DNA from: Squalus acanthias
Taxonomy: Eukaryota
Assembly: GCA_030390025.1 (NCBI GenBank)
Contig: CM059432.1
Location: 37,822,001-37,886,000 of the forward strand
Reading direction: 5' to 3'
DNA length: 64,000 nt
Position 1 is the stretch's first letter; every line of letters begins with the position of its first letter. The translations under genes were made by a program, and so were the position numbers. The notes under the pieces were generated by a model. That model was given only the letters and a program-made list of their open reading frames with translations, had not been told where the DNA came from and made no database searches. Shown piece by piece: positions 527 to 64,000 of the stretch.

Positions 527-1633
527 GGTAGTAATTTCTACAATATGTCTGAGGAATTACTTATCATCTGACTGGGGTAGTGGTGTATAGGGAATCGAAC
601 CATAATGGCATCAGGCCAAGGAGCCTTATCTCAAAAAACCATGATGCCAAGTCCTGTACTGCATATATAATCACATGTAAAGTGACCGCAGTATATTAAA
701 AAAAAATTAAATTAAAAAATTTAGTGGATGCCTACACGTTACAAGATTGTGTTAGTAGGTATCTACTTTTTGATGGGAGGTCCTGTCAATTTGGAGCGAC
801 TGGTGTAATGATCATATTGTGGAGACTTCATGGACAGTGGGAACAAACAGTTTGCACTGCTTTTAGTTTATTATTTAGAAGTAGCACGTTCATAAGCTGC
901 AGTAATGCCTACAATGCACTCCACCCACGGATGACAGGATGAGCAAACTGATTTATCCAACCGCTACATGTGTAACTGCACCCTATATTGGCATATAATA
1001 AACAACAGTTACGCTTTGGTGCAAGTGATGTGCTTCTTTTTCTTCAAAATATAAATCTTAGTGACTATATTTGTGCTTTTTGTTGACAGGTCTGTTTTGT
1101 GAAAAGCCCCCTTTTATAATCCGCTCATGCGGTATAATGAATATAAAATATTTACATCATTATAATGAGTATTATTTACCGCCTTCCTTGTGTTGCTTAT
1201 CCAATGTTTTTTTTAATTTATAGTTTAGCTTGGCCTAGGCAAATTATCACTTGCACTCTCCTCCTTCCAGCATTGGCAGTCTAGTCGTCATTCTCAAATT
1301 GTTATCTTATCCATGGTACTTGAAGGCTAAGTCATGCAACTCCCCATAGCGAATGAGCATACTTGCTCCTTATGTTTTGAACTCTTCACGTGTCAAACAA
1401 CCTCTTACAGATCCTTTGATCAGAGGAGATGTCACAAAGATAAATGATAAGACCCTCAGGTTCCATTTCCTTTACATGAATAGGTCTCCCTCTCTTTCGT
1501 TAAATGGTTAGTCATAACAACAAATGTAACAAACTAAGTTTTAAAAAAGCTATCACAACAATGGCTCCGTAAACCAAATATAATACTGTAAATGTTGAAA
1601 AATGCAGGCACGGCACATGTACAAGAATCACAG

Positions 1634-2508
1634 GCCTGAATTTCGCCCCCTCCCCCGGCCGCCGCATTGGTGTGTTTACCATTGGATGGTCCTATCACTC
1701 ACCAATGGAAAACTGCCACTAACCCGTCACAATTTCCTCCCAGAACCTCATTAGCCATGTGGGGTGGTTTGGAGGCCAGAAAACTGCCTTCATTTGCCTA
1801 CTGCTACTAGGAAGCAGGAGAATACAGTTCTGGTAAGGTTGCATCCAGTTAAAGCACAACAACACTTTCAGCAAATTGTCAGAAGGAGCAGCAGGTGTGT
1901 CAGCAGCTGGAAGGGCCCACAGACCTTCCAACATCTCCATGGCAGTGCTGTGCGTTGTCTGATCCCACGGTGTTCAATTTTAACCTGCTCTTCCGAGCAG
2001 GCCTCAAGGACACCCGCCTGAAGCCTTCTTTAAATATGCAGATCGGGCCCCGACTGCAATTTTAACAGCGACTTGAGCAAGGAAGCCATTGTGGCTTTCC
2101 AGTCAAGTGACGAGTACGAGAAAAGCAACAGGGACCAGAAGAGGCCAATTAAGGTAAGTCGGACTGCTCCTCAAGACCTTGTGGGACCAGGAGTCATCGG
2201 ACTGCTCCTCAAGACCTCACAAAGAAAGTTCAGGCCTCCCTGCCCAGAGTTCCCTCCCATGAGATCCTCCTTGCAAAATACCTTCTCGCTGACAAGCCTC
2301 CCTTTGCTGCCAGCCAGTGGCCTCCTGGCACCTGAACCTCCACTCTCCTTGCCAGCTAGCTGCCGCATCCTGCCCATTTTGGGTGGGCAGCTGACAGGCG
2401 GCATGCAGATAAGCCCTGGTAGTTAAAAATCACTTGGTCCTCACGCTGCTGAGGTTGGGTTGTGCTGCTCGCCTTGACCAGCCCGCCCGCTCCAGGTTAA
2501 AATCCGAG
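1634..2508. mobile_element. Degenerate non-autonomous DNA transposon (GGCC/GGGC-ended MITE-like family C)
   Basis: GC-rich block starting ggcctgaatttc and ending gttaaaatccgagc. Internal motifs (ttttaacc, aaggtaagt, ccttgtgggaccaggag) resemble 6733-7354 and 17870-18400. Confidence 0.5.
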
Positions 2509-5500
2509 CTTTTGTAACCATGCCACAAAAATCATATAGAAAGAAGTATTTCACACACACAGCAACTTTATTGATTGACCAGGAGGCCTGCTATTGTTGT
2601 CTCAGGTGGTAATCTCCCCAACCGAAAATACCAGGATGTAGGCCCGAGAAACAATCACCATTAGAGTCAATGAGATGCTCACCACTCGTAGAACCTAGCA
2701 GGTCAGAGAATATTTTCCTGATTGTGGGGGGAGGGGGGGGGAAAAAATGCCGAAACTGGGCTTCAAATGCCAGAAACACAAGGTCTTATCCCAGAAGAAC
2801 TCAAAATGACAATACCAGCAGAAACGGTCATGGTGGAACAGACTGACCGACGAAATCTTCAGTGTGACTGAGGCGGGTATGGGAGTGTTCACCAGTACAA
2901 TTGACAGGTGCCTTCTTTTCAATGGCACAGTGTGTACAGCACCGTAACTGATCAGAAATGTAATTTGCCGTAAAAGTTGGCAAATAGCCAATCACTACTT
3001 GCTTTATAGATGATAGGAAGAATTTTCTGGTTTAAGTGCAGCTGGTGATAGTGGGGCCCTGGGGCTTCACGGCTGCTGGAATGGAAAGGGCTAATAACCA
3101 TGTTGGAACTTCAGGGTCCTCCTCATTTTTGCAAGTGCAGCGTGCTCCCAGCATCAAGTATGTCTCGGGACCTTTAAAATCAGTTTCTATTGCCAATTTT
3201 AAAAAAAGAGAGGCCTTTTTTTTGTGTGCTTTTCAGTTTTTATTTTTACCATCAAAAATGGGTGAAACTCAAGTGGAAAAGAATTTAGAGCCCAATGAAA
3301 GGTTAAATTCGGAGAAAATCAGTTATTTGTTTTGAACATCACTAAACCTCACAGTTCCCCAGATATCACTTTTTTTGGGCTTTAACCGCAGTCCCAAGAA
3401 TTCTGGTAAGCGTATGTTCCCAGGAGTTGTGTTAAAGCGTGTAGGAGGGAATGAAGTGATAAATCTAAGCATTCAATTTTGTCACGCTTTGCTATCCACT
3501 TTGAAATGTGAACAGTAGAATTCTTGAAGCCAATGATCCAGCTCAATACTACCATTCTGTGAGACTCCCTAGGCTTCGAGAGAACACAGATGCACCACTG
3601 TGATATCATTAAGGCAAAATAATGCACGTTGATCCACATCCAGCAGGGTTTAAACAGACACTAACCTCTCTCCCTGGTGCAATCTGCCAGTAACATGGAG
3701 GGGGAAATTGAGTATATACTCGCGACTGAATTTCCATGATTGAGGCGCCACCTCTAATAAATCTAATTGGTGTGGTTCCAATCATAGCTGGCACCAGCAG
3801 TATTTTGGTAATACACCCAGTGATGGTACAAGCCAATGCAAATCATCCATATTGAGCAACAACTGGGTGTTCAAAAAATTAAGCTGAATTGGCTCAATCT
3901 GACTCATTCTTTGGGTTAGGAACTAAGGTTTCATGCTCATTCCTGGGGTTCTTAGTGTTGGTGAACTTCCCTTAAGTTGCTTCCCTTCCAGAATTTGGTA
4001 CTGAAGGTCAGGTCTTGAAATGCTAGTGCATTGTGCTATTGATACCTTCACAGATGTTATGCCCATACATCATCAAGCAATGCACGTGATGTCGCTAACG
4101 CGATACGTACGCCTCTCAGGATCCGCTAACAGCAAGGAGAATTCCTCTTTTTGCAGGCCAGGATTGGGCTGAAGTTCAGGATTTCTCTGCCAACCTGGAA
4201 AAATCCTGGAATTTATCAGTAAAGATTGGTAAAGATTTGCAAGGGTGCCTCCCATTGGAAGCTCACCACTTGTGGAGTGAGGTACCTGGCACTGCTTCAG
4301 GATTTAAGAGCCCTACGCCAGCATCTTAAAGGGGAGCTACAATCATTTATTTAAATTAATAAACATTTCCAGCTATTTTTTGGCAGATAAAAATAGAGAT
4401 GGTGAAGCACCACATGTCCCAAAGGTTCCTGCTGCTTCCGTGAAAGACTTATTGGATCAAGTTTGGCACCCAGTGTCCACATGGGGCAGCAACAAAGAGT
4501 GCTTGGTGGTAACACATGTTAATGCAAAGGGCACCACCTGGAGGAGCTGGCTGTCAGTCAGGAAGAACTGATAAGCATTCAAAACAGTATAAAAAGATAT
4601 GGATGGAGTTAAAATACAGATCAGCCATGGTCTCATTGAATGGCGGAACAGGCTCGAGGGACTGAATGGCCTTCTCCTGTTCCTATGAAACCTCACCAAG
4701 GGTCAGCCAAGATAGGACTGACGAGCAGAATGTTATATGAAGTACTGCCCAAACACTAGGGAAAGAGAGGGTGAAGAGCTTCTTCCCCCTCACACTATCT
4801 TAGTCTTACAGTCCACTGAATGCTTACCACATGGCCATTCTACAGCAGAGCACACTATCATTTACATAATTGAAAGGATTTGGCCAAAAATATTCTATGC
4901 CTGCATGATGCATATAAATGTAATCACACCCATGTTGGGCAGCACAGTGGCACTTAATTATCCTCCTGATTATTTCAACTCATCACCTTATCTTCTCCGC
5001 TTTCAGGACAAGATTGCACAGAATAGGCAGGAGGATTCCATAACTTACATCACGCGAGTGACATCGAGACCACCCTCCAGATTAGTGGCTAAAAGAGCAT
5101 AGAGGGAGTAGGGGATGATTAATTCAGCATTCTAGTCGTAGCTCAGCATTAATCTCTCTCTCTCATTTTTCTCACCTACTCAAATCAGTCACCAGTACAT
5201 ACACTGAGCATAATACAGTCTGACTCATTCTGCTGTAAACCATGTTTAAAAAACTGTCTTCGTGACAGCACTGTTTCTCTTCTCTTTCTCCACAGGAACT
5301 TGTGCAGAGTTTCCCAGGCCTGCTGAGCCTCTCATAGGTCACACACTTCTACCCATGCAAGTAACTCGGGTACATCTACCATGGGGGATTTAGAAAGAGA
5401 GAGAGTAGGTTGCAACGAGTGTTACACAAAGCACAGCTACGCAGGTGCAAGAGGAGGAGCAGGAACCAGCTGTCTTAAGGTTCAGCTCACGCCAATTCTC

Positions 5501-8375: not shown

Positions 8376-10874
8376 TACATATACATAGAAGATAGGAGCA
8401 GGAGTAGGCCATCCGGCCCTTCGAGCCTGCTCCGCCATTTAATGAGATCATGGCTGATCCTCCAATTCAGTATCCCATCCCCGCCTTCTCTCCGTAACCC
8501 TTCACCCCTTTTGCCTGTAGAAATATATCTAATTCCCTCTTAAATATATTTAATGAGCTGGCGTACACTGCCCTCTGTGGCAATGAGTTCCACAGGTTCA
8601 CCACCCTCTGAGTGAAGAAATTCCCCCTCATTTCTGTCCTAAATGGTTTAGCCCTTATCCTTAAATTATGTCCTCTAGTTCTGTTCTCACCCGCCAAGGG
8701 AAACATTCCTTCTGCATCTAGTCTGTCTAGACCTGTCAGAATTTTATACACTTCTATGAGGTCCCCTCTCAATCTTCTAAACTCCAGTGTGTACATCCCT
8801 AAACTACATAGTCTCTCCTCATAGGTCAATCCCGCCATTCCTGGTATCAGCCTGGTGAATCGCCGCTGCACCCCCTCCATGGCAAGAACATCTTTCCTCA
8901 GATGAGGCGACCAAAACTGTACACAGTACTCGAGGTGTGGTCTCACCAGTGCCCTGTACAGCTGCAGCAAGGTATCCCTGTTCCTGTATTCCAACCCTTT
9001 TGCTATGAAGGCCAGCATACCGTTTGCCTTCTTGACCGCCTGTTGCACCTGCATGCTCGCCTTCAGTGACTGGTGAACAAGAACACCCAGGTCTCTCTGT
9101 ACTTCCCCCTCTCCCAATTTATTGCCATTTAAATAATAATTTGCCCTCCTGTTCCTGCACCCAAGGTGGATAACTTCGCACTTGTCCACATTATAGTGCA
9201 TCTGCCATTTATCCGCCCAATCACCCAGTCTGTCCAAATCGCTCTGGAGCTTCCTGGTCTCCTCCTCTGAGCCCACCCCCCCTCCTAGTTTAGTGTCGTC
9301 TGCAAATTTGGAAATGCTGCATCCGACTCCCTGATCCAGGTCATTAATGTAAATTGTGAACAGCTGGGGACCCAGGACAGATCCCTGCGGTACCCCACTT
9401 GTTACTGCCTGCCATTCAGAAAATGAGCCGTTTATTCCAACTCTCTGTTTTCTATCTGACAGCCAGTTCTCTATCCACGTCAATACTTTCCCCTTTATCC
9501 CATGAGCTTCAATTTTCCCTGCTAATCTTTTATGTGGGACCTTATCGAAGGCCTTTTGGAAGTCAAGGTACACCACATCTACTGGCTCTCCCCCATCTAT
9601 TTTACCAGTTACTCCCTCAAAAAATTCCAATAGATTAGTCAAGCACGATTTACCCTTTGTAAATCCATGTTGACTCTGTCCTATCCTGTCCCCATTTGCT
9701 AAGTGCTCCGCTATTTCATCCTTAACGATGGACTCCAGCATTTTGCCCACAACTGATGTAAGGCTTACAGGTCTGTAATTACCTGCTTTTTCCCTACCCC
9801 CCTTTTTGAATAGTGGGGTAACGTTAGCTACCCTCCAATCCATGGGCACTGTTCCCGAGTCTAATGAATTCTGAAAAATCATACTTAGTGCATCCGCTAT
9901 CTCTAGGGCCACCTCCTTCAGCACCCTAGGATGCATGTTATCAGGCCCTGGGGATTTGTCCGCCTTCAATCCCTTTAGCTTCCTTAACACCATATCCTTA
10001 GAGATATTGATTTGCGTCAGTTCCTCCTTTGCAAATGTCCCTATTTTTCCCGATATCCCAGGGAGGTTTTTTGTGTCTTCCTTCGTAAAGACTGACCCAA
10101 AGTATGCATTTAGTTGGTCTGCCATTTCCTTATTTCCCGTTATATATTCCCCCGTATCTGACTGCAATGGGCCAACTTTGGTTTTCACCAGTCTTTTCCT
10201 CTTGATATACTTATAAAAGCTTTTGGAGTTAGTTTTTATATTTTCCGCCAGCTTGCTTTCGTAAGCTATTTTGCCCCTCTTGATTAAGCCCTTTGTCCTC
10301 CTTTGCTCTATCTTAAACTGTTCCCAATCTTCCGCTCTGGCGCTTTTTTTGGCTATTTTATACGCCCTATCTTTGGATTTTATGCTGTCTCTAATTTCCC
10401 CTGTTATCCACGGTTGAGTCACCTTTTTAGATTTCCTTTTATGCCAGATTGGTATAAACAATTTTTGCAATTTTGTCATTCTATCTTTAAATGCTTGCCA
10501 TTGTTTATCTACCTCCAGTCCTCCCAGGAACGTTGTCCAATCAGACCTACTCAGTTCCCGTCTAATGGCATCATAATTCCCCTTGTTTAAATTCAGGACC
10601 TTAGTATCTGAGTCAATTTCTTCGCTCTCCATTTCGAGTGAGAAATCGATCATGTTATGATCGCTCTGACCCAAGGGTCCCCGTACAACAAGATTACTAA
10701 TTAGTCCCTTCTCATTGCACAGTACCCAGTCCAATATAGCCTGTTCCCGAGTTGGTTCCTCGACATATTGATCCAGATAACCATCCCTTAAACACTCAAG
10801 GAATTCCTCCTCCTCATTATTTTTACTGATTAGGCTAGTCCAATCTATATGTAAGTTAAAGTCACCTATGATGA
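8376..10874 (-). mobile_element. Young 5'-truncated CR1-clade LINE with uninterrupted ORF2 (C-terminal APE endonuclease + reverse transcriptase)
   Basis: ORF 8467-10938 contains GDFN, LDWVL and SDHN (APE) and QHGF, YLDFQKAFDKV, GVPQGSVLGP, FADDTKL (RT). Its first ~20 aa derive from the flanking LINE. The 3' UTR has a short ctatgtat tail. Confidence 0.95.
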
Positions 10875-21250: not shown

Positions 21251-23188
21251 TTTTTTTTATTCGTTTATGGGATGTGGGCATCGCTGGCAAGGCCAGCATT
21301 TATTGCCCATCCTTAATTGCCCTGGAGAAGATGGTGGTGAGCCGCCTTCTTGAATTGCTTCAGTCCTTCTGGTGAAGGTTCTCCCACAGTGCTGTTAGGG
21401 AGAGAGTTCCAGGATTTTGACCCAGCGACAATGAAGGAATGGCGGTATATTTCCAAGTCAGGATGGTGTGCAACTTGGAGGGAAACTTGCAGGTGATGGT
21501 GTTCCCATGTGCTGCTGCCCTTGTTCTTCTAGGTGGAAGAGGTCGCAGGTTTGGGAGTTGCTGCCGAAGAAGCCTTGGCGAGTTGCTGCAGTGCATCTTG
21601 TAGATGGTACACACTGCAGCCACGGTGCGCAAGTGGTGGAGGGTGTGAATGTTTAAGGTGGTGGATGGGGTGCCAATCAAGCGGGCTGCTTTGTCCTGGA
21701 TGGTGTTGAGCTTCTTGAGTGTTGTTGGAGCTGCACTCATCCAGGCAAGTGGAGGGTATTCCATCACACTCCTTACTTGTGCCTTGTAGATGGTGGAAAG
21801 GCTTTGGGGAGACACCCGCTGCAGAATACCCAGCCTCTGACCTGCTCTTGTTACCACAGTATTTATGTGGCTGGTCCAGTTAAGTTTCTGGTCAATGGTG
21901 ACCCCCAGGATGTTGATGGTGGGGGATTCGACAATGGTAATGCCATTGAATGTCAAGGGGAGATGGTTAGACTCTTGCTTGTTGGAGATGGTCATTGCCT
22001 GGCACTCGTGTGGCGCGAATGTTACTTGCTACTTATCAGCCCAAGCCTGAATGTCGTCCAGGTCTTTCTGCATGCAGGCACGGACTGCTTCATTATCTGA
22101 CAAATTGCGAATGGAACTGAACACTGTGCAATCATCAGCGAACATCCCCACTTCTGACCTTATGATAAAGGGAAGGTCATTGATGAAGCAGCTGAAGATG
22201 GTTGGGCCTAGGACACTGCCCTGAGGAACTCCTGCAGCAATGTCCTGGGGCTGAAACGATTGACCTCCAACAACTGCAACCATCTTCGTTTGTGCTTGTT
22301 ATGACTCCATCTTGTGGACAGTTTTCCCCGATTCCCGTTGACTTCAATTTTACTAGGGCTCATTGATGCCACACTCTGTCAAAAGCTGCCTTGATGTCAA
22401 GGGCTATCACTCTCACCTCAGGAATTCAGCTCTTATGTCCATGTTTGGACCAAGGCTGTAATGAGGTCTGGAGCCAAGTGGTCCTGGCGGAACCCAAACT
22501 GAGCATTGATGAGCAGGTTATTGGTGAGTAAGTGCTGCTTTATAGCACTGTCCACAACACCTTCCATCACTTTGCTGATGATTGAGTAGACTGATGTGGC
22601 AGTAATTGGACGGATTGGATTTGTCCTACTTCTTGTGGACAGGACGTACCTGGGCAGTTTTCCACATTGTCGGGTAGATGCCAGTATTGTAGCTGTACTG
22701 GAACAGCTTGGCTAGAGGTGCGGCTAGTTCTGGAGCACAAGTCTTCAGCACGACGGTCGGGATGTTCTCGGGGCCCATAGCCTTTGCTGTATTCAGTGCG
22801 CTCAGCCGTTTCTTGATATCACGTGGAGTGAATCGAATTGGCTGAAGACTGGCTTCTTTGATGGTAGGGACCTTAGGAGGAGGCCGACATGGATCATCCA
22901 CTCGGCACTTCTAGTTGAAGATAGTTGTAAATGCTTCAGCCTTGTCTTTTACACTTGCATGCTGGGCTCCGCCATCATGGAGGGTGAGGATATTCATGGA
23001 GCCTCCTCCTCCTGTTAGTTGTTTAATTGTCCACCACCATTCACGACTGGATGTGGCAGGACTGCAGAGCTTTGATCTGATCCGTTGATTGTGGAATCGC
23101 TTAGCTCTGTCTACAGCATGCTGCTTCCGTTGTTTAGAATGCATATAGTCCTGTGTTGCAGCTTCCCCAGGTTGGCATCTCATTTTTA
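21251..23188 (-). mobile_element. 5'-truncated copy of the second CR1-clade LINE family (tRNA-headed family)
   Basis: Fragmented RT ORFs (KTCAPELAAPL, GVPQGSVLGP, MFADDCT, MSAAPTTLKKL) and tail cccataaacgaataaaaaaaa. Confidence 0.9.
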
Positions 23189-35149: not shown

Positions 35150-36393
35150 ATTTTTTTATATTCGTTCCTGGGATGTTGGCGCGCTGGCAAGGCCAGCATT
35201 TATTGCCCATCCTTAACTGCCCTTAAGAAGGTGGTGGTGAGCCGCTTTCTTGAACCGCTGCAGTCCGTGTGGTGAAGGTACTCCCAAAGTGCTGTTAGGG
35301 AGGGAGTTCCAGGATTTTGACCCAGCAACGATGAAGGGACGACGATATACTTCCAAGTCAGGATGGTGTGTGACTTGGAGGGGAACTTACAGGTGGTGGT
35401 GTTCACATACGCCTTGTCCTTCTAGGTGGTAGAGTTCACGGGTTTGGGAGGTGCTGTCGAAGACTACTTGGCGAGTTGCTGCAGTGCATCTTGTAGATGG
35501 CACACACTGCAGCCACGGTGAGCTGGTGGTGGAGTGAGTGAATTTTTAAGGTGCTGGATGGGGTGCCAATCAAGCGGGCTGCTTTGTCCTGGATGGTGTT
35601 CAGCTTCTTGAGTGTTGTTGGAGCTGCACTCACACCCAAGCAAGTGGAGAGTATTCCATCACACTCCTGACTTGTGCCTTGTAGATGGTGGAAAGGCTTT
35701 GGGGAGTCAGGAGGTGAGACACTCGCCACAGAATACCCATCCTCTGACCTGCTCCTGTAGCCAGAGTATTTATGTCGCTGGTCCTGTTAAGTTTCTGGTC
35801 AGTGGTGACCCCCAGGATGTTGATGGTGGGGGATTCGCCGATGGTAGTGCTGTTGAATGTCAAGGGGCGGTGGTTAGACTCTCACTTATTGGAGATAGTC
35901 ATTGCCTGGCACTTGTGTGGCACGAATGTTACCTGCCACTTATCAGCCCAAGCCTGAATGTCATCCAGGTCTTGCTGAATGCAGGCATGGACCGCTTCAT
36001 TATCTGAAGAGTTGCAAATGGAACTGAACACCGTGCAGTCATCAGTGAGCATCCCCACTTCTGACCTTATGATGGAGGGAAGGTCATTGATGAAGCAGCT
36101 GAAGATGGTTGGGCCTAAAACACTACCCTGAGGAACTCCTGCAGTGATGTCCTGGGGCTGAGATGATTGACCTCAAACAACCATCTTCCTTTGTGCTCGG
36201 TATGATTCCAGCCAGTGGAGAGTTTTCCCCAATTCCCACCGACTTCAGTTTTACTAGGGCTCCTTGATGCCACACTCAGTCAAATGCTGCCTTGATGTCA
36301 AGGGCAGTCACTCTCCCCTCATCTCTGGAATTCAGCTCTTCTGTCCATGTTTGGACCAAGGCTGTAATGAGGTCTGGAGCCGAGTGGTCCTGG
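35150..36393 (-). mobile_element. 5'-truncated copy of the tRNA-headed CR1-clade LINE family
   Basis: Colinear with 41936-43150. ESPTINILGVT and SAAPTTLKKL remnants. Confidence 0.9.
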
Positions 36394-36889
36394 CCATAAT
36401 TTTGTCACTAGGAAAGTCAGCAAAATGTACCACTGTTGCTGGTCATTCACACTCCCATTCTCTCCCTTTCTTTCTACTCATACTGGAATATGATTTCACG
36501 GGCGCTGGATGCCTCTTCTAGCTTGTCTCAGTGGTCAGTCTTCATGTAGGAGTCAGACAGTGAATGCTGGCAGCCGACTCATCTCCCTGGGGTATCAACC
36601 CCGAGCCAGATGCCGTCCTCAACCAATGTCCAAATATACACAATTCCAAGCTGGGGTCACTGGACAGTGATGGGTAGCGGAAACGATATCTGATTTCATC
36701 GCTCTTGCCCAGTGCTGCTCAGGTCAACTGTGGTGCCAACACCACCACCACCACCACCCGAGCTGAAATCACCCAACTTCAGACTGTGGATCGAACCTGG
36801 GACCTTACTGATTGGTACAGGCGGTGCATTAACTAACTGCATCATCAGTGATTAAATTTGCCTGTCCTTTTATGATTTTGAAAGAACGA

Positions 36890-41935: not shown

Positions 41936-44900
41936 TTTTTTTGAAAATTCGTTTATGGGATCAGGGCGTCGCTGGCAATGCCAGCATTTATTGCCCATCC
42001 CTAGTTGCCCTTGAGAAGGTGGTGGTGAGCCGCCTTCTTGAACCGCTGCAGTCTGTGTGGTGATGGTACTCCCACAGTGCTGTTATGGAGGGAGTTCCAG
42101 GATTTTGACCCAGCGACGATGAAGGATCGGCGATATACTTCTAAGTCAGGATGGTGTGTAACATGGAGGGGAACTTGGAGATGGTGGTGTTCCCATGCGC
42201 CTGCTGCCCTTGTCCTTCGAGGTGGAAGAGGTCGCGGGTTTGGGAGGTGCTGCCGAAGAAGCCTTGGCCAGTTGCTGCAGTGCATCTTGTAGATGGTACA
42301 CACTGCAGCCACGGTACGCCGATCAAGCGGGCTGCTTTGTCCTGGATGGTGTCGAGCTTCTTGAGTGTTGTTGGAGCTGCACTCATCCAGGCAAGTGGAG
42401 AGTATTCCATCACACTCCTTACTTGTGCCTTGTAGATGGTGGAAAGGCTTTGGGGAGTCAGGAGGTGAGACACTCGCCGCAGAATACCTAGCCTCTGACC
42501 TGCTCTTGTTGCCACAGTATTTATATGGCTGGTCCAGTTAAGTTTCTGGTTAATGGTGACCCCCAGGATGTTGATAGTGGGGGATTCGGCGATGGTAATG
42601 CCATTGAATGTCAAGGGGAGGTAGTTAGACTCTCGCTTGTTGGAGATAGTCATTGCCTGGCACTTCTGTGGTGCGAATGTTACCTGCCACTTATCAGCCC
42701 AAGCCTGAACGTCGTCCAGGTCTTGTTGCATGCGGGCATGGACTGCTTCATTATCTGTGGAGTTGTGAATGGCGCTGAACACTGCAGTCATCAGCGAACA
42801 TCCCCATTTCTGACCTTATGTTGGAGTTAAGGTCATTGATGAAGCAGCTGAAGATGGTTGGGCCTAGGACACTGCCCTGAGGAACTCCTGCAGCAATGTC
42901 CTGGGGTTATGATGATTGACCTCCAACCATCGCAACCATCTTCCTTTGTGCGAGGTATGATTCCAGCCAGTGGAGTGTTTTCCCCCTGATTCCCATTGAC
43001 TTCAGTTTTACTAGGGCTCCTTGATGCCAGACTCGGTCAAATGCTGCCTTGATGTCAAGGGCAGTCACTCTCACCTCACCTCTGGAATTCAGCTCCTTTG
43101 TCCATGTTTGGACCAAGGCTGTAATGAGGTCGGGAACCGAGTGGTCTTGGCGGAACCCAAACTGGGCATCAGTGAGCAGGTTATTGGTGAGTAAGTGCCG
43201 CTTGATAGCACTGTCGATGACACCTTCCATCACTTTGCTGATGATTGAGTGTAGACTGATGGGGCGGTAATTGGCCTGGTTGGATTTGTCTTGCTTTTTG
43301 TGGACAGGACATACCTGGGCAGTTTGCCACATTGTCGGATAGATGCCAGTATTGTAGCTGTACTGGAACAGCTTGGCTAGAGGCGTGGCTAGTTCTGGAG
43401 CACAAGTCTTCAGCACGATAGCCGGAATGTTGTCGGGGCCCATAGCCTTTGCTGTATCCAGTGCGCTCAGCCATTTCTTGATATCACGTGGAGTGAATCG
43501 AATTGGCTGAAGACTGGTTTCTGTGGTGGTGGGGACCTTAGGAGGAGGCCGATATAGATCATCCACTCGGCACTTCTGGCTGAAGTCTTTTGCACTCACG
43601 TGCTGGGCTCCACCATCATTGAGGATGGGGATATTCTTGGAGCCTCCTCCTCCCGTTAGTTGTTTAATCGTCCACCACCATTCACGACTGGATGTGGCAG
43701 GACTGTTGATTGTGGGATCGCTTAGCCCTGTCTATAGCATGCTGCTTCTGCTTTTTAGCATGCATGTAGTCCTGTGTTGCAGCTTCCCCAGGTTGGCACC
43801 TCATTTTTAGGTACGCCTGGTGCTGCTCCTGGCATGCTCTTCTACACTCGTTGTTGAACCAGGGTTGGTCCCCTGGCTTGGTGGTAATGGTAGAGTGAGG
43901 GATATGCCGGGCCATGAGGTTACAGATTGTGGTGGAATACAATTCTGCTGCTGCTGATGGCCCACAGCACCTCATGGATGCCCAGTTTTGAGCTGCTAGA
44001 TCTGTTCTGAATCTATCCCATTTAGCATGGTGGTAGTGCCAAACAACACGATGGAGGGTGTTCTTAGTGTGAAGACGGGACTTCGTCTCCACAATGACTG
44101 TGCGATGGTCACTGCTACCAATGCCGTCATGGACAGATGCATCTGCGACAGGTAGATTGGTGAGGACGAGGTCAAGTCTGTTGTTCCCTCGTGTTGGTTC
44201 ACTCACCACCTGTCGCAGGCCTTTCAGGACTCGGCCAGCTCGGTCAGTAGTGGTGCTACCGAGCCACTCTTAGTGATGGACATTGAAGTCCCCCACCCAG
44301 AGTACATTCTGTGCCCTTGCTACTCTCAGTGCTTCTTCCAAGTGGTGTTCAACATGGAGGAGTACTGATTCATCAGCTGAGGGAGGGCGGTAATCAGCGT
44401 TTCCTTGCCCATGCTTGACCTGAAGCCATGAGACTTCATGGGGTCCGGAGTCAATGTTGAGGACTCCCAGGGCCACTCCTTCCTGACTGTATACCACTGT
44501 GCCGCCACCCCTGGTGAGTCTGTCCTGCCGATGGGACAGGACATACCCAGGGATGGTGATGGAGGAGTTCGGGACATTCGCTGAAAGGACATACCCAGGC
44601 TGAAAGGTATGATTCTGTGAGTATGACTATGTCAGGCTGTTGCTTGACTCGTCTGTGGGACAGCTCTCCCAATTTTGGCACACGTCCCCAGATGTTAGTG
44701 AGGAGGACTTTGCAGGGTTGACTGGGCTGGGTGTGCCGTTGCCGTGTCCGTAGCCGAGGTCGGGTGGTCCGTCCGGTTTCATTCTTATTATTTTGTTATC
44801 GTAGCGGTTAGTTACAACTGAGTGACTTGCTAGGCCATTTCAGAGGGCAGTTAAGAGTCAACCACATTGCTGTGGGTCTGGAGTCACATATAGGCCAGAC

Positions 44901-45126
44901 CAGGTAAGGACGGCAGATTTCCTTCCCTAAAGGACATTAGTCAACCAGATGGGTTTTTATGACAATCCGATAGTTTCATGGTCACCATTACTGATACTAG
45001 CTTTTTAATTAACTGAATTTAAATTCCCCAGCTGCCGTGGTGGGATTTGAACTCACGTCTCTGGATCATTAGTCCAGGCCTCTGGATTACTAGCCCAGTG
45101 ACATTACCACTAGCGCTACCGTTCCC
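41936..45126 (-). mobile_element. Near full-length CR1-clade LINE with tRNA-derived 5' head, single ORF2 (APE + RT, decayed), no ORF1
   Basis: APE motifs NIWG..PDIVILTESYL, GDFNVH, PTRGNNRLDLVL and SSDH. RT motifs QFGFR, ALDIKAAFDRVWH and GVPQGSVLGP. A box at 45107-45118 and B box at 45043-45054. Confidence 0.9.
45043..45126 (-). promoter_or_regulatory. tRNA-like internal Pol III promoter (A box TAGCGCTAGTGG, B box GAGTTCAAATCC)
   Basis: Consensus-like A and B boxes, ~52 nt apart, at the extreme 5' end of the LINE. Confidence 0.75.
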
Positions 45127-50929: not shown

Positions 50930-52396
50930 AAGTCTACCATTACCATCAAGCCAGGCGACCAACACTGGTTCAATGAGGAGTGTAGAAGAGCATGCCAGGA
51001 GCAGCACCAGGCGTACCTAAAAATTAGGTGCCAACCTGGGGAAGCTGCAACACAGGACTACATGCATGTTATAGACAGAGCTAAGCAATCCCACAACCAA
51101 CGGATCAGATCAAAGCTCTGCAGTCCTGTCACATCCAGTCGTGAATGGTGGTGGACAATTAAACAACTAACGGGAGGAAGAGGCTCCATGAACATCCCCA
51201 TCCTCAATGATGGTGGAGCCCTGCATGTGAGTGCAAAAGACAAGACTGAAGCGTTCGCAACCATCTTCAGTCAGAGTGCAGAGTGGATGATCCATATCAG
51301 CCTCCTCCCGAGGTCCCCACCATCACAGAAGCCAGTCTTCAGCCAATTCGATTCACTCCACGTGATATCAAGAAACGGCTGCGCGCACTGGATACAGTAA
51401 AGGCTATGGGCCCCGACAACATCCCGGCTGTCATGCTGAAGACTTGTGCTCCAGAACTAGCCGCGCCTCTAGCCAAGCTGTTCCAGTACAGCTACAATAC
51501 TGGCATCTACCCGACAATGTGGAAAACTGCCCAGGTATGTCATGTCCACACAAATCCAATTCGGCCAATTACCACCTCATCAGTCTACTCCCAATCATCA
51601 GCAAAGTGATGGATGGTGTTGTCAGCAGTGTTATCAAGCAGCTCTTACTCACCAATAACCTGCTCACCGATGCTCAGTTTGGGTTCCGCCTGGACCACTC
51701 GGCTCCAGACCTTATTACAGCCTTGGTCCAAATATGGACAAAAGAGCTGAATTCCAGAGGTGAGTTCAGAGTGGTTGCCCTTGACATCAAGGCAGCATTT
51801 GACCATGTGGCATCAAGGAGCCCTAGTAAAACTGAAGTCAATGGGAATCAGGGGGAAAACTCTCCACTGGCTGGAGTCATACCTAGTACAAAGGAAGATG
51901 GTTATGGTGGTTGGAGGCCAATCATCTCTGCCCCAGGAAATCCTGCAGGAGTTCCTCAGGGCAGTGTCCTAAGCCCAACCATCTTCAGCTGTTTCATCAA
52001 TGACCTTCCCTTCATCATAAGGTCACCATTGACCAGAAACTTAACTGGACCAACCACATAAATACTGTGGCTACAAGAGCAGGTCAGAGGTTGGGTATTG
52101 TGCAGCGAGTGTCTCACCTCCTGACTCCCCAAAGCCTTTCCACCATCTACAAGTCAGGAGTGCGATGGAATACTCTCCACTTGCCTGGATGGGTGCAGCT
52201 CCAACAACACTCAAGAAGCTCGACACCATCCTGGACAAAGCAGCCCGTTTGATTGGCACCCCATCCACCACCTTAAACATTCACTCCCTCCACCACCTTA
52301 AACATTCACTCCCTCCACCACCGGCGTACCGTGGCTGCAGTGTGTACCATCTACAAGATGCACTGCAGCAACTTGCCAAGGCTTCTTCGACAGCAC
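50930..52396 (+). mobile_element. Internally deleted copy of the tRNA-headed CR1-clade LINE family
   Basis: Reverse-complement of 41936-43890 segments. 25-bp tandem duplication at ~52264-52320. Confidence 0.9.
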
Positions 52397-55300: not shown

Positions 55301-55562
55301 TATAAAGCCGACTACAGAATTCTCTTGCAGCTACCTGACACCATTGTGGGAGCACCCTCACCACAAGGACTGCAGCGATTCAAGAAGAATGCCCACTACC
55401 ACCTTCTCAGGGCAACTAGGGAATAAATAGCAGCCTCATCAGCAATGCCCGCATCCCGAAGACAAATACATTACAAAATCATAGCCCTTTTAGCTCTAAA
55501 CCTATCATTTTTAAACTTATTTCTGCAAAAGTAACTGTGATGACTTGTTTTCTTAAGATATT

Positions 55563-60115: not shown

Positions 60116-62721
60116 GCAGTGGGGAACCTTGCCCATCACCAGTGTTTAATTGAAAATCACGGACATGCTGCTTGCAATTCCCCATCCTTTGAAACGGTAA
60201 TATGCCCGTGAGTTTCCGATATGTCAGGGTCTTTGTCGACAACCATGAACAGAAAAATTAGGTTATCGAGTTGTCCTCGGGATCCTTTACAGTTAACCAG
60301 TTAAGGCCGATTAAGAATAATAAAGAGCTTATTATTGTCACAACTCATTCATACACTAAAGGATGGAGATTAACAATGTTACAACTGAACCAATATTCTT
60401 TCAGCAATGAGGAACGGTCACTGAAGTGATTAGTACAACCAAACTGCATTGACCACCAGAAATGATCACAATAGCATAGTATCAAGGTAGGTTGTAGTTT
60501 TGGAAAGCAGATTTTGATCATTGTAAGCACTACTGATCACTACAAGTGGTGAGCAGCACCTACAGGTTTCACTGTATACATTTACGGCTTAACTAATTGA
60601 TCATGTTCCCGAAGCTCTTTTGCACTTTCCCCATGTGAGTGAGAGACAATGAAGTAAATGGGAGGCTATTGAGGACTCTAGAAGACAAGCTAGAGGTCAA
60701 TCCTTAACTGTTTGTTCAAAGCATGAGATCATAATCTGTGGGGAGGCAACAGACCCCAGCCATCAGCATCAGTGACAGGAAACAGCTCGCTGCAGTTCAC
60801 AGATAATGAAGTCAGGACTTTTCAACTTGACATCACCCAAAAAAATACAATATGGCTTCTGCAAACCAATGCCCACAGGCTGAAATAGACATAGTGCGAC
60901 ACGACTTTCCTCACTAATGTCAAGGCAGAGCAAGACAGCGAGCGAGAAAGAAGTGAGCAGGAACTCAAGACAATGACAATTTGGGAATAAACGTAGTGGA
61001 AAGGATACATAACAGGCTACGGCAATACAATATTCTCTCATGGGCTGTACTGCCTTGAGAGCAAGTTGACAGAGACAACAAGAGTACGCTGAAATGAAAC
61101 GAGACTGTCAAAAATATATTTTTTCCTCCCTCTAAAGACACCATGCAGAGGGCATTAGGACCTTAATCTACTGATCATGTGGTGCAGCCCGAGTGAGGTT
61201 GAGACAGGCTCCCTCAATGGACAACGTAGTAAAGAGTGACATAACTAGCCCCCCAAGGAGAACAGAGTAGATATGAAATTAGGGCTGGGATCTGAATTCA
61301 AGCTTAATTAATCACTAGCACTGTGTTTTTTTTCCAAATTGAAAATTTCATTAGATCAGGTTTCTTCTTAGTTCCAGCAACAACAACTTGCCTTTTTTAA
61401 ACAAAAATGCAAAATGCAAAATACTGCAGATTCTGGAAATCTGAAACAAAACCAGAAAACGCTGGAGATACTCAGCAGCTCAGGTAGCATCTGTTGAGAA
61501 AACAGGAGATCGTTGAAACTTTTCCTCAATATATAAAACTCTCTCTCAGAGCATCTGTGCAGAGGGACAAAGAAGCTATGACATCATTATCACGATTGGC
61601 AGCCTAGCCCAGCGCCACAGGTGAGCACAGATGGGGTATGCTGCCAGGCATGCTCTCGAAGCTAGTTTATTTTTAAATTTGGAGAAAAGCCGAAGAAAGA
61701 TAGTTCAAAGAATTGTCTTTTTCCAAACATCAATTAGTTCTTTCAATTTCTTTTTTTTTAAATTATTTTTGCGTGGGATGTGGATGATACTGGAAATGCA
61801 GCATTTACTGCCCATCCCTAGTTGCCCTGAGAAGGTGGTGGTGGGCCATCTCTTTGAACCGCTGGGGTCTTTGTGGCAATAGCGCTCCCAACAACTGTGC
61901 TGGTTAGGGAATTCCACGATATTGACCCACCAGCGATGAAGGAATAGCAATACATGTCCAAGTCAGGATGGTGTGCAACCTGGAGGGGAACTTATAAAGT
62001 GACGATGCTCCCACGGCATTTCTTTTCAAAATGTTAAACACCGCCTGTGGTTTGGTAGCTCTTTGGTTAGAATCTGGATGCATTTTGGCAAAAGTTAACA
62101 GCAACAACTTGCTTTAACGTAGTAAAACGTCCCAAGACACTTTACAGGAGCGTTATTAAACAAAATTTGACACCAAGCCACATAAGGAGATGTTACAGCT
62201 GACCAAAAGCTTGGTTAAAGAGATAGGTTTTAAGGAGCGACTTAAGGAGGAGAGGGAAGTAGAGATGCGGAGAGTTTTAGGGAGGGAATTCCAGAGCTTA
62301 AGGCCTGGAGTGACTAACTTTAGTGAGTTTATTAATGGAACAAGGTGGACAAATCCCAGATTAAATATGTATTTTAAATCATAAAAAGGACCTTCGGTCT
62401 GTCTATAATTATCCTCTATGTAATTAAGTTAATGGGGCAGAACTCGCTCATAGTGTAAAAATTGCACAACCCACAATAATAATTCACTTTCCACATTATT
62501 TGAATAGTTGTATTATAGTGCAGTTGCTACACGTCTGCAATGACTATCTGAATTCCGGCCGCCACCAAAAAGGTAAATTTGTTAAAAATACGTAACACGT
62601 GGAGCCGGGAGGAGTGAGAGTGCTCCTTCTGACCTTCACTGCTGACCCCCGCCCCACTCCGATCATGACCTCCATTTCCTCCGACCGCCCCCACACCACC
62701 CACCCCCCCCCCCCCACCGAT

Positions 62722-62840: not shown

Positions 62841-63084
62841 AAAGATTGCTGCATGCTTTAGAACAGGGTTAGTCAAAAGAAATCAGCTGTTTATTATACT
62901 AGATGGTGAAGAGCTTGTTCCAAGGCTGTAACTATGGGATTCAACCAGCATCATAAATCATAAGGTAAGGCAAACAAAAGGATATCGGAACCCTCAGCAT
63001 CATGGTCAAATACTCTCGGACAACTTGCATTTTAATGCAGCGGACACAGCCAGGGCTGTTTTCGTTTTGTTAAAGTGGGAAAGC

Positions 63085-64000
63085 AGCACTGGCTGGAGTC
63101 ATACCTTGCACAAAGGAAGATGGTTGAGGTGGTTGGAGGTCAATCATCTCAGCCCCAGGACATCGCTGCAGGAGTTCCTCAGAGCAGTGTCCTAGGCCCA
63201 ACCATCTTCAGCTGTTTCACCAATGACCTTCCCTCCATCATAAGGTCAGAAGTGGGGATGTTCGCTGATGATTGCACAGTGTTCAGTTCCATTCACAACT
63301 CCTCAGATAATGAAGCAATCCATGGCCGCATGCAGCAAGACCTGGACAACATTCAGGCTTGGGCTGTGTGGAATGTGGCAAGTAACATTCGTGCCACACA
63401 AGTGCCAGGTGCTGACTATCTCCAACAAGAGTCTAACCACTTCCCCCTGACATTCAACGGCATTGCCATCGCTGAATCCCCCACCATCAATATCCTGGGG
63501 GGTTACCACTGACCAGAAACTTAACTGGACCAGCCACATAAATACTGTGACAACAAGAGCAAGTCAGAGGCTGGGTATTCTGCGGCGAGTGTCTCACCTT
63601 CTGACTCCCCAAAGCCTTTCCACCATCTACAAGGCACAAGTAAGGAGTGTGATGGAATACTCTCCACTTGCCTAGATGAGTGCAGCTTCAACAACATTCA
63701 AGAAGCTCAACACCATCCAGGACAAAGCAGCCCGCTTGATTGGCACCCCATCCACCACCTTAAAAATTCACTCCCTCCACTACTGGCGCACTGTGGTTGC
63801 CGTGTGTACCATCTACAAGATGCACTGCAGCAAGTCGCCAAGGCTTCTTCGGCAGCACCTCCCAAACCCGCGACCTCTTCCACCTAGAAGGACAAGGGCA
63901 GCAGGCGCATGGGAACATCACCACCTCCAAGTTCCCCTCCAAGTTACACACCATCCTGACTTAAAAATTTATCGCCGTTCCTTCATTGTCGCTGGGTCAA
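63085..64000 (+). mobile_element. 5'-truncated copy of the tRNA-headed CR1-clade LINE family (runs off the window)
   Basis: WLESYLAQRK..GVPQSSVLGP..MFADDCT motifs. Smaller tail fragments at ~28265-28440, 55330-55465 and 61765-62015. Confidence 0.9.

Follow-up and report, generated by a model that had tools for sequence, protein, structure and literature searches.

A CR1-Zenon-like LINE with a tRNA-type head in Squalus acanthias: a candidate for transcription by Pol III

A stretch of 64,000 nucleotides from Squalus acanthias (contig CM059432.1, positions 37,822,001 to 37,886,000; in the following "the window") contains a decayed member of a high-copy LINE family of ~3.25 kb. The LINE has one ORF, behind which come a short 3' UTR and then a tail rich in A; at the 5' end it has inherited a tRNA-derived head that contains A and B boxes, and a leader of ~230 nt lies between this head and the ORF. 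A tRNA-like start signal is normally confined to short non-coding repeats. In the same genome a SINE is present that equals this headed LINE minus its ORF. Moreover, T|T codon junctions (a T-ending codon followed by a T-starting one) and T3 runs are significantly depleted in the LINE, well beyond what codon usage explains, in a strand-specific manner and unlike in the other LINEs of the window. We regard transcription of the headed LINE by Pol III from its head as the best reading of these features, with a probability of roughly one half.

Anatomy of the headed LINE

The features of the family in the window are the following (positions are those of the window):

41936..45126, minus strand: headed LINE, full-length but dead copy of 3,191 nt
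45042..45126, minus strand: tRNA-derived head with A- and B-box-like motifs, element bases 1-85
45107-45118, minus strand: A-box-like motif of the head, disrupted in this copy by a 1-nt insertion
45043-45054, minus strand: B-box-like motif of the head, read from the sequence as GAGTTCAAATCC
44812..45041, minus strand: leader or "body", element bases 86-315, common to the ~400-bp SINE
42001..44811, minus strand: single ORF, broken in this copy, with stop codon TAG at 42001-42003
44068..44684, minus strand: apurinic-type endonuclease domain, approximate, mapped with tblastn from copy L072
42626..43236, minus strand: reverse transcriptase domain, approximate, mapped with tblastn from copy L078
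41936..42000, minus strand: 3' UTR with AATAAA, the inverted repeat GGCAAT...ATTGCC, then GAA-T4-C-A7
21252..23188, minus strand: 5'-truncated copy, element bases 1318-3191
35151..36394, minus strand: 5'-truncated copy, element bases 1976-3191
50933..52396, plus strand: 5'-truncated and internally deleted copy, element bases 1233-2880 in pieces
63074..64000, plus strand: 5'-truncated copy, from element base 2140 and running past the window end

The ORF of ~930 codons combines endonuclease and reverse transcriptase, as is the case in APE-type LINEs; Pfam domains scored on stretches that are naturally open in copies L072, L065 and L078 were Exo_endo_phos_2 (3e-14), Exo_endo_phos (1.2e-9) and RVT_1 (1.2e-38). 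An ORF1 was not found, the ~315 nt upstream of the ORF being devoid of a long frame. The sequence-only reading had described an element that starts with A and B boxes and reaches the endonuclease without an ORF1, and indeed the motifs are present, with the endonuclease frame starting near base 316. Other copies measure 3,210-3,299 nt when insertions are excluded. All 15 aligned copies have a broken ORF, and the longest open piece of the copy at 41936-45126 comprises 274 aa.

The copies are dispersed; they are truncated to different extents at the 5' side but share their 3' end, as seen in the four truncated copies of the window, in start points between bases 1 and 559 in 29 copies and in a 3' end common to 18. 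In each of these 18 the 3' UTR is followed by an A tract of ~6 to 9 or more, sometimes interrupted, and AATAAA lies 40 nt upstream of the A tail. The T run preceding this tail varies from one (eight copies) through two, three and four (three copies each) to five (one copy), so that the T4 at the 3' end of the main copy is not a fixed terminator. No flank repeat above chance, and hence no target-site duplication, was detected in any of 13 full-length copies; elements of the CR1 group are frequently without them.

The head and its short partner

The head is a property of the family. A query extending from head to ORF covered the junction in 40 of 40 scored matches in the genome (91-94% identity). 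In an unbiased sample, for which genome copies were anchored on the endonuclease region alone, 29 copies held the ORF start: 15 of them extend to base 5 or earlier of the head, the remaining 14 are plain 5' truncations (five at bases 25-46, four at 120-258, five at 372-559), and an alternative, headless 5' sequence occurs in none of the 29. Fourteen of 20 copies retrieved from the genome are full length, and 12 of 14 full-length copies other than that of the window start at the same base, with no more than a mismatch or two from GGGAACGGTAGCGTAGTGG, within unrelated flanks. Pairwise identity among copies is equal in head (96%) and ORF (95%). The prediction that full-length copies consistently begin with this head, instead of a head attached to one copy only, has thus been borne out, and the family-wide junction together with the precise 5' ends rules out a chance adjacency of SINE and LINE.

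Within the head, TAGCGTAGTGG is found at element bases 9-19 and GAGTTCAAATCC ~50 nt downstream, corresponding to the A and B boxes of Pol III promoters, the consensus forms of which are general knowledge. The A-box pattern is kept in 10 of 15 copies and GTTCAAATC in 14 of 15, and the 5' end therefore has the boxes by which tRNA-derived SINEs are recognised. The head may be a degenerate tRNA, although tRNA ancestry itself is weakly supported: the Rfam tRNA model yields 22.1-22.6 bits, under its gathering score of 29, ARAGORN and Rfam at gathering threshold detect no tRNA in the window, the fold of the head is no stronger than that of shuffles (z -0.4), and no acceptor-stem pairing is kept.

An old, diverged relative displays the same order of head, leader and ORF, with an endonuclease protein 45-50% identical. 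It lacks close copies, the best matches being 70-80% identical and mostly covering head and leader alone, and one more locus (C2:64918076-64918572) spans the head to the ORF start. The joint presence of head and ORF in this relative indicates that their pairing is long-lived.

Since the 5' ends coincide exactly with tRNA position 1, the head could alternatively be a processing signal, where RNase P cuts the tRNA-like head from read-through host transcripts and thereby provides a defined 5' end. Ribozyme-processed LINEs are a precedent (PMC12203849; for PMC5786205, as far as its available text goes), and R2 possesses an HDV-like ribozyme. Such cleavage is nevertheless very improbable here, given the lost acceptor stem, a fold indistinguishable from shuffles, the sub-threshold Rfam score and the negative ARAGORN result, and it would leave the avoidance of T runs described below unexplained.

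The ~400-bp SINE begins with the head and leader and passes from there directly to the final ~45 nt of the ORF and on to the 3' UTR. A pattern of leader motif, 45-75 nt and tail motif has 1,721 exact matches in the genome, which fall into several recurrent junction forms; in the longest of these the LINE is kept to about bases 315-335 and resumes near 3068 (match C1:241169473; also L081 and L082). The SINE copies L081-L083 are 87-95% identical to element bases 3081-3191. Identical joints occur in contigs, of uncertain kind, from four runs of four organisms, and in run X1 the summed contig depth (which is not copy number) of bin 44800-44913 is ~20-fold that seen in the adjacent bins of the ORF.

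Besides its head, the short element has the second hallmark of tRNA-derived SINEs, a 3' tail common with the partner LINE, and it is short, non-coding and LINE-dependent, which the 3.25-kb element with its ~930 codons under purifying selection is not. It likewise joins the 5' and 3' ends of a LINE without the ORF, as do SIDEs of the Persaeus type; these are described, in the part of the source available, as free of a small-RNA head and of a Pol III promoter (PMC6740152), and here the short element differs. Instead of a SINE fused onto a LINE, as previously proposed, the pair is better viewed as a Zenon-like LINE and, as its short form with an internal deletion, the SINE.

T runs, the reading frame and the transcribing polymerase

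A sense strand free of T4 was the central observation of the sequence-only reading, and our recount gave the same picture: the sole T4 on the minus strand of 41936-45126 is at 41944-41947, and the opposite strand carries 13 runs of T4 or longer ("about a dozen" before). Similarly, the plus-strand copies at 50933-52396 and 63074-64000 have no sense T4, those at 21252-23188 and 35151-36394 have one each (22381-22384 and 36117-36120, positions at which the main copy differs), and another LINE at 8376-10874 has five in 2.5 kb. Runs common to at least eight of 15 copies comprise no T4, 15 A4, 11 C4 and 9 G4 on the sense strand. Sense T4 is wholly absent from nine of the 15 aligned copies, and the five private T4 runs found among the 15 arose as post-insertion changes.

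The element accordingly resembles a type-2 Pol III unit in lacking runs of four or more T from its start to its end, but taken alone this does not exceed chance. The T4 number expected is 4.1 from base composition, 1.5-2.1 in dinucleotide shuffles (P for zero ~0.1-0.2), 2.2-2.4 in codon and synonymous shuffles (P ~0.06-0.1) and 1.4 in a stricter stratified shuffle (P 0.20). The absence of T4 is real, yet by itself only weakly significant (P 0.06-0.2 under codon-aware nulls), and its contrast between strands is mostly due to composition (A 28% vs T 20%).

The wider avoidance of T runs is a different matter. Only eight T|T junctions are observed, compared to 24.8 expected by codon shuffle (eight reached in 0 of 2000), 26.4 by synonymous shuffle (0 of 3000) and 19.5 by stratified shuffle (P 0.0003); T3 or longer runs number five, with 11.6-13.4 expected. 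No comparable lack exists for A|A junctions (ratio 0.87-0.91), and the overall odds are 0.75 for TT vs 1.0 for AA. In three other LINE copies of the window, used as controls, the T|T ratio is 0.89-1.12 and T4 counts are near expectation. The one decayed copy of the old relative has seven T|T junctions vs 11.9 expected (P 0.046) and a single T4. Hence the counter-explanation named beforehand, low T content or codon usage, is half right: with codon usage allowed for, the missing T4 fails to reach significance, and the depletion of T|T junctions and T3 runs goes well beyond it.

Such avoidance might serve another need of the RNA, such as fewer premature cleavage and polyadenylation sites, reduced pausing or evasion of U-specific nucleases, in an ordinary Pol II element with a fossil head, where the leader is a Pol II internal promoter and the tRNA-like head an inherited passenger at the transcription start. 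Transcripts of Pol II ordinarily carry AATAAA and an A tail, and the former stands 40 nt before the latter in our element; the non-significant T4 absence and the head's score under the Rfam threshold point the same way. Furthermore, lepidopteran Zenon is, in the available account, ORF1-less, ~3.3 kb long and ends in a poly-A tail, and has short deleted derivatives without any Pol III promoter (PMC6740152), so the leader might alone drive Pol II. On the other hand, a Pol II start would have to hit tRNA position 1 exactly, copy after copy, and the A and B boxes are kept both in the family and in the old relative. The T|T depletion is not found in the three other window LINE copies, and T|A junctions, once CpG decay is controlled, are not significantly depleted (39 vs 45.9, P 0.07), which argues against a UU/UA nuclease signature and weakens nuclease avoidance as a cause.

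The start of the ORF is an additional difficulty for a fossil head, since a scanning ribosome would find no AUG for this frame and 6-10 upstream ATGs in the leader up to the +1-frame ATG (13 copies). The frame opens directly after a TAA, and upstream of the endonuclease domain an in-frame ATG is missing from all five copies with an open frame there. The first five codons contain no ATG in the most frequent form, represented by 18 of 36 copies, nor in any other listed form except one; the protein of a relative starts with Met at the corresponding place. Taken together, we consider a Pol II element of this kind unlikely. Relative to shuffles the leader fold had z values from +0.5 to -2.0, and with no energy signal in head or leader an IRES-like or tRNA-like fold is without support.

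The ORF of the headed lineage has been under purifying selection, as shown by shared substitutions: those in at least three copies have an N:S of 94:63, private ones of 997:376 (odds ratio 0.56, P 0.001). In a search with a reverse transcriptase piece, 11 of 68 other scored matches had no internal stop, the longest open frame being 874 aa; longer ones, of 975-986 aa, appeared only where stops lie inside the match. Both results bear on the proposal that the RNA of 3.2 kb, though started by Pol III at the head, is a mere template, in effect a very long SINE, copied in trans by a protein from another transcript or from an unsampled headless master. Such a long passenger would accord with an ORF lacking an in-frame AUG, with the breakage of all 15 aligned copies and with the same tail mobilising the short SINE in trans. 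Apart from the selection on the ORF and the stop-free matches, it conflicts with the lack of headless 5' ends among the 29 unbiased copies and with the lasting pairing of head and ORF in the old relative, and is still less likely than the fossil head.

We therefore return to Pol III transcription of a coding element as the preferred reading. In this model the head would be the internal promoter and Pol III would start at its first base, for which reason full-length copies would begin exactly there. The polymerase would then read through the entire ORF, which would be possible because the master sequence is without T4 and its sense strand is kept poor in T runs, and would stop either within the variable T run and A tail or further downstream. 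Low-level translation of the uncapped RNA would do without an AUG and might begin at the ACG of codon 4, and the protein would copy its own RNA as well as the short deleted RNAs by way of their common 3' tail. In favour of the model are a head that belongs to the family and recurs on a multiplied short element, the avoidance of T on the sense strand, and an ORF that mattered to the lineage (N:S) and has no conventional start.

Several observations weigh against it. The T4 absence is not significant alone (P 0.06-0.2), and avoiding every T|T junction exceeds what T4 avoidance needs. To our knowledge, a product of 3.2 kb would exceed every natural Pol III transcript several-fold in length. Uncapped RNA is poorly translated, and here it would have a leader with 6-10 upstream ATGs and a fold no stronger than shuffles. 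Moreover, the head is degenerate (sub-threshold in Rfam, folding no better than shuffles), AATAAA and an A tail are present, and all 15 aligned copies are broken. The idea of an "autonomous SINE-LINE chimera transcribed by Pol III" thus appears to us a good but unproven hypothesis. Its full version, an autonomous LINE lineage with end-to-end Pol III transcription from the head, cap-free non-AUG translation and SINEs born by loss of the ORF, we put forward tentatively, as somewhat short of an even chance.

Comparison with known retroelements

Our full-text literature search found no paper on a LINE with a tRNA-derived head or on its transcription by Pol III. Non-LTR retrotransposons are described as Pol II units, and a Pol III head as defining non-coding SINEs (PMC10886601; PMC5786205, both as far as the available text goes). 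A coding LINE with a long-kept tRNA-type head, a SINE of its own and T-run avoidance would be a candidate for a Pol III-made mRNA.

By its length, absence of ORF1 and A tail, the headed LINE fits the description of CR1-Zenon: it shares with it a size of ~3.3 kb, the lack of an ORF1 and the poly-A tail (PMC6740152, PMC13343379), the last being stated to occur in no CR1-group lineage but Zenon (PMC13343379). The host range of elasmobranch Zenons likewise includes sharks and rays, and they are reported as absent from repeat repositories (PMC13343379). Names from sequence similarity were of little help: the nearest database proteins (35-48% identical) are without names, the 120 homologues listed offered no useful ones for assigning a clade, and the nearest protein-atlas clusters are mostly arthropod, with only RVT_1 clusters and one with ALKBH8_N, a domain that Pfam did not detect in our ORF. 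Lepidopteran CR1-Zenon gives rise to Persaeus, a short internally deleted element, which like ours is composed of 5' UTR, ORF start, ORF end and 3' UTR (PMC6740152). Unlike Persaeus and its Zenon, for which the available account records no tRNA similarity or Pol III promoter (PMC6740152), both LINE and short form carry a tRNA-type head in Squalus acanthias. The elasmobranch account mentions, in its available part, neither such a head nor a promoter (PMC13343379); even if the element were transcribed by Pol II, the shared head, the AUG-less ORF and the strand-specific T|T avoidance go unmentioned there for shark CR1-Zenon-type elements.

Tail-sharing pairs of tRNA SINE and LINE are known from HE1/HER1 in sharks and rays and UnaSINE1/UnaL2 in eel (PMC3747384). 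Their short elements are built in the same way, from a tRNA-type head through a body to a tail derived from the LINE, and HE1/HER1 occurs in the same host group, a comparison made by description. In these pairs, as far as the source is available, the tail alone is reported as common (PMC3747384), whereas our LINE also has the head and the whole body. According to the available text of Kojima 2018, SINE bodies may derive from LINE 5' parts via bipartite deleted LINEs, in RTE and Vingi only; LINE and deleted form are assumed to be Pol II products, a tRNA head being added later to the short form, and SINEs cannot encode protein (PMC5786205). Our SINE agrees with these cases in that its middle part is the same as the 5' portion of its LINE and internal deletion is the route, but here the head sits on the coding LINE itself. 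SINE birth by internal deletion of a headed LINE would require no separate joining of tRNA, body and tail: head and tail would both come ready-made from one LINE.

Pol III promoters derived from small RNAs also occur in another non-SINE class of retroelements, the non-autonomous LTR retrotransposons Cassandra, Helenus and Ajax, with 5S- or tRNA-derived promoters (Kojima 2024, PMC10886601). The headed LINE would be like them in this respect; they differ from it in being short and non-coding, as described in the available text (PMC10886601). Finally, R2 is co-transcribed by Pol I and processed by a 5' ribozyme, is site-specific, and its translation is thought to be cap-independent (PMC12203849). 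The likeness, for the headed LINE a proposal, would lie in a LINE RNA other than an ordinary capped Pol II transcript; the headed LINE differs in being dispersed and in its tRNA-type internal promoter motif. If the Pol III reading is true, LINEs would be known for each of the three nuclear polymerases.

A Zenon-like LINE with an inherited tRNA-type head

The headed LINE comprises a tRNA-like head (element bases 1-85), a leader (bases 86-315), a single ORF, a 3' UTR and a tail; the last is a tract of roughly 6-9 or more A that follows ...CCCATAAACGAAT. Its Pfam domains are Exo_endo_phos_2, Exo_endo_phos and RVT_1, an ORF1 is lacking, and target-site duplications were absent from all 13 copies examined for them. 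Database relatives (35-48% identity, 930-985 aa) lie on contigs of 3.2-3.7 kb, and the atlas clusters nearest to its protein are mostly arthropod. Within the CR1 group, the available text of PMC13343379 describes Zenon as devoid of ORF1 and as the sole member with a poly-A tail, and elasmobranch Zenons as absent from every repeat repository. The headed LINE fits this description in its ORF1 absence and A tail, an assignment made by these described features. Besides the main copy, the window holds four 5'-truncated copies and two tail-only fragments, probably old truncated relatives.

Headed LINE and tail-only fragments in the window
41936-45126, minus strand: main copy, with tRNA-like start, leader of ~230 nt, endonuclease-reverse transcriptase frame, short 3' UTR and A tail
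55338-55422, plus strand, and 61751-61993, minus strand: tail-only fragments, 77-85% identical to the element's last 90-240 nt

A different LINE, at 8740-10770 (minus strand) and with 27% protein identity, has two overlapping stop-free stretches of 522 and 504 codons and may represent a young copy from another family.

The tRNA-type head that the sequence-only reading had placed on this LINE proved to be family-wide and not a one-off. When a query running from head into ORF was compared with the 3.71-Gb genome containing the window, all 40 scored matches covered the junction (91-94% identity; 4,179 first-look candidates). As an unbiased sample, the endonuclease region alone was used as query and the upstream sequence was then inspected in 29 other loci; the element started at base 5 or earlier in 15, at 25-46 in 5, at 120-258 in 4 and at 372-559 in 5, and none of the 29 ran on into an alternative 5' sequence. 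Of 20 places that were anchored on the head and retrieved in full, 14 were complete from head to tail (3,210-3,523 nt), the other six being truncated, internally deleted or interrupted. Twelve of the complete copies begin at the identical base, at most a mismatch or two from GGGAACGGTAGCGTAGTGG, in unrelated flanks, and two are without the first 14 bases. Motifs were called from the consensus forms of the A and B boxes; of 15 copies, 10 have an A-box-like TAGCGTAGTGG and 14 have GTTCAAATC. Pairwise identity is 96.5% in the head, 95.9% in the leader and 95.3-95.6% in the ORF, and this equality implies that the head shares the history of the remaining element. Next to locus L049 lies an old relative, now decayed (45-50% endonuclease protein identity, 4 stops in 278 codons), which has the order of the young family, i.e. 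a tRNA-like head with TAGCCTAGTGG, leader and ORF, so that head and ORF have long been co-inherited; no close copies of this relative were found in the genome. The family is a Zenon-like LINE with an inherited tRNA-type head, which itself resembles a tRNA only weakly: its Rfam tRNA score is 22 bits (gathering score 29), ARAGORN found no tRNA, and its fold is not better than shuffles.

Several further observations concern the head. In the old relative (L084, reverse strand, 460-541) it lacks a duplication of ~20-25 nt (CCAGAGGCCTGGACTAATGATCCAGAGAC region) present in that of the young family (window 45042-45126), and the spacing from A to B box therefore increased within the lineage. Genome-wide, with up to two mismatches, a head 25-mer was counted 16,981 times and one from the ORF start 12,718 times; the former is strand-skewed (10,165 forward, 6,816 reverse) and the latter balanced (6,330 and 6,388). 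On one contig (C1), exact head matches are ~4x sparser than exact ORF matches, despite the larger head total. Directly 5' of a full-length copy (L076:225-250), the end of the flank resembles the first ~25 bases of a second head (ggcaaacggtagcatagtggtaacag), which points to an insertion at a head, either nested or in tandem.

Sense-strand T runs and the transcription of the LINE

The sequence-only reading had regarded the scarcity of T4, a run of four T on the sense strand, as selection against Pol III terminators. Its counts were all correct. The main copy has a single sense T4 (41944-41947) and 13 runs of T4 or longer on the opposite strand, at a sense-strand composition of 28.4% A, 28.3% C, 23.2% G and 20.1% T; two truncated copies have none and two have one each (22381 and 36117), at positions where the main copy has different bases; the unrelated LINE at 8376-10874 has five. 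Across 15 aligned full-length copies, sense T4 numbered 0 in nine, 1 in three, 2 in one and 3 in two, as against 13-18 A4, 8-12 C4 and 7-10 G4 per copy. Run sites common to at least 8 of these copies number 0 for T4, 15 for A4, 11 for C4 and 9 for G4; five T4 runs are private and hence arose after insertion. Base composition predicts 4.1 T4, dinucleotide shuffles predict 1.5-2.1, codon and synonymous shuffles 2.2-2.4, and a stratified shuffle 1.4. Taken alone, the absence of T4 is thus not significant (P 0.06-0.2) and may be partly explained by T content and codon usage; a clearer depletion is seen in T3 runs and in T|T junctions (a T-ending codon followed by a T-starting one).

Both were examined in a pair of natural open pieces that do not overlap (956 codons). 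Eight T|T junctions were observed against 24.8 expected from codon shuffles (0 of 2000 as low) and 26.4 from synonymous shuffles (0 of 3000). The stratified shuffle, which controls for CpG decay by fixing the amino acid, the first two bases and a following G, gave an expectation of 19.5 (P 0.0003); T|A depletion was not significant in this test (39 vs 45.9 expected). Runs of T3 or longer numbered 5 against 11.6-13.4. A|A junctions reach 0.87-0.91 of expectation, and the T|T depletion is therefore strand-specific. The TT odds ratio is 0.75 in the headed LINE (AA 1.0), 1.13 in a control LINE and 1.14 over the whole window, and in four control stretches, taken from three further LINE copies of the window and equally CpG-depleted, T|T ratios lay between 0.89 and 1.12 and T4 counts were close to those expected. 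Depletion beyond the shuffles, together with normal controls, indicates that the master sequence was kept poor in T runs on its sense strand, an avoidance that exceeds the effects of protein and codon usage.

That 5' ends fall exactly on tRNA position 1 through repeated cycles of copying, and that T runs are avoided, would be explained most simply by transcription by Pol III, which would start at the head and read through the entire unit; from these sequence features we put the probability of this account at roughly 0.5. The unit's length, the missing cap, AATAAA and A tail, and the insect Zenon precedent without a Pol III promoter count against it. A Pol II unit carrying a fossil head is a rather unlikely alternative, for which the exact ends and T avoidance would need another account; a Pol III passenger is more doubtful still, and RNase P processing very improbable. 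In the accessible part of PMC2666806, insertion is reported to be faster from templates made by Pol III, which also do not depend on supplemented ORF1p, in contrast to an Alu transcript driven by Pol II, an independence that by analogy would suit an ORF1-less LINE transcribed by Pol III.

The T run that separates GAA from the A tail (window 41936-41950, minus strand, and 17 other copies) measures 1 in eight, 2 in three, 3 in three, 4 in three and 5 in one, independently of subfamily markers as judged from 3' UTR variants. In B2-type SINEs, termination in a T run is followed by A-tailing; the variable run could be a remnant of the same sequence of events, or could reflect slippage.

A constrained ORF that lacks an AUG

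Among non-CpG substitutions in 59 aligned copies, N:S is 94:63 for those in at least 3 copies and 997:376 for private ones (odds ratio 0.56, P 0.001), which indicates purifying selection on the ORF during diversification of the headed lineage; for variants in at least 6 copies (27:15) the result was not significant. None of 15 aligned copies has an intact ORF (longest open piece 635 aa), and the 69 scored matches to a reverse transcriptase piece, most of which contain stops, include open frames of up to 986 aa. The endonuclease frame starts directly after TAA.

ORF start
Window 44760-44811, minus strand: frame LTATKQNNK; same place in L065, L068, L072, L073 and L075

No in-frame ATG occurs upstream of the endonuclease domain in any of the five copies open there. 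The majority start, TAA CTA ACC GCT ACG AAA, is found in 18 of 36 copies, the remaining forms being mostly CpG-decay variants; one copy has ATG replacing ACG, and a related protein starts MATKKN at the position of LTATKQN. The closest ATG lies in the +1 frame, where it opens an overlapping ORF of ~55 codons, and is preceded by 6-10 leader ATGs. The ORF is constrained and lacks an AUG, and a scanning ribosome would be expected to perform poorly on this RNA. In R2, which is co-transcribed with rRNA, translation is thought to begin cap-independently (PMC12203849).

A SINE derived by internal deletion, and its known counterparts

Contigs of four runs from four organisms contain joints that link a point at about 42011-42063 with one at about 44806-44845 and so place the tail directly on the leader; in run X1, summed depth in the leader bin is ~20x that of the ORF start, depth not being copy number. 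A pattern in which 16 leader bases and 16 tail bases flank a spacer of 45-75 bases gave 1,721 exact matches genome-wide and its reversed control 0. Two of three fetched places are elements of ~390-400 bp that start with the LINE's head; the third is 5'-partial, with leader end and tail only.

Short elements
L081:1219-1622: SINE
L082:1239-1632: SINE

Both match the LINE's first 284-314 bases at 86-89% identity, after which come the final ~45 nt of the ORF, then 3' UTR and A tail. The ~400-bp SINE is a deleted form of the headed LINE. At least four recurrent junction forms, counted by eye, occur among 100 places listed, the longest retaining LINE bases ~315-335, first ORF codons included; this suggests that the SINE arose by internal deletion more than once, or that nested deletions followed later.

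Full-text literature searches, with Repbase and Dfam outside their scope, turned up no LINE described as carrying a tRNA-derived head; the LINE and SINE described here may be identical to the HE1/HER1 pair (PMC3747384). In the portion available, Kojima 2018 (PMC5786205) takes LINEs as Pol II units, says that SINEs are unable to encode protein, and names LINE 5' parts in SINE bodies for RTE and Vingi only; Pol II use by non-LTR elements is restated in the corresponding text of Kojima 2024 (PMC10886601). Persaeus, a deleted derivative of insect Zenon, has the same structure as the SINE described here and consists of LINE ends without the ORF. In the accessible text of PMC6740152, however, Persaeus has neither tRNA similarity nor a Pol III promoter, whereas the present SINE carries a tRNA-type head.
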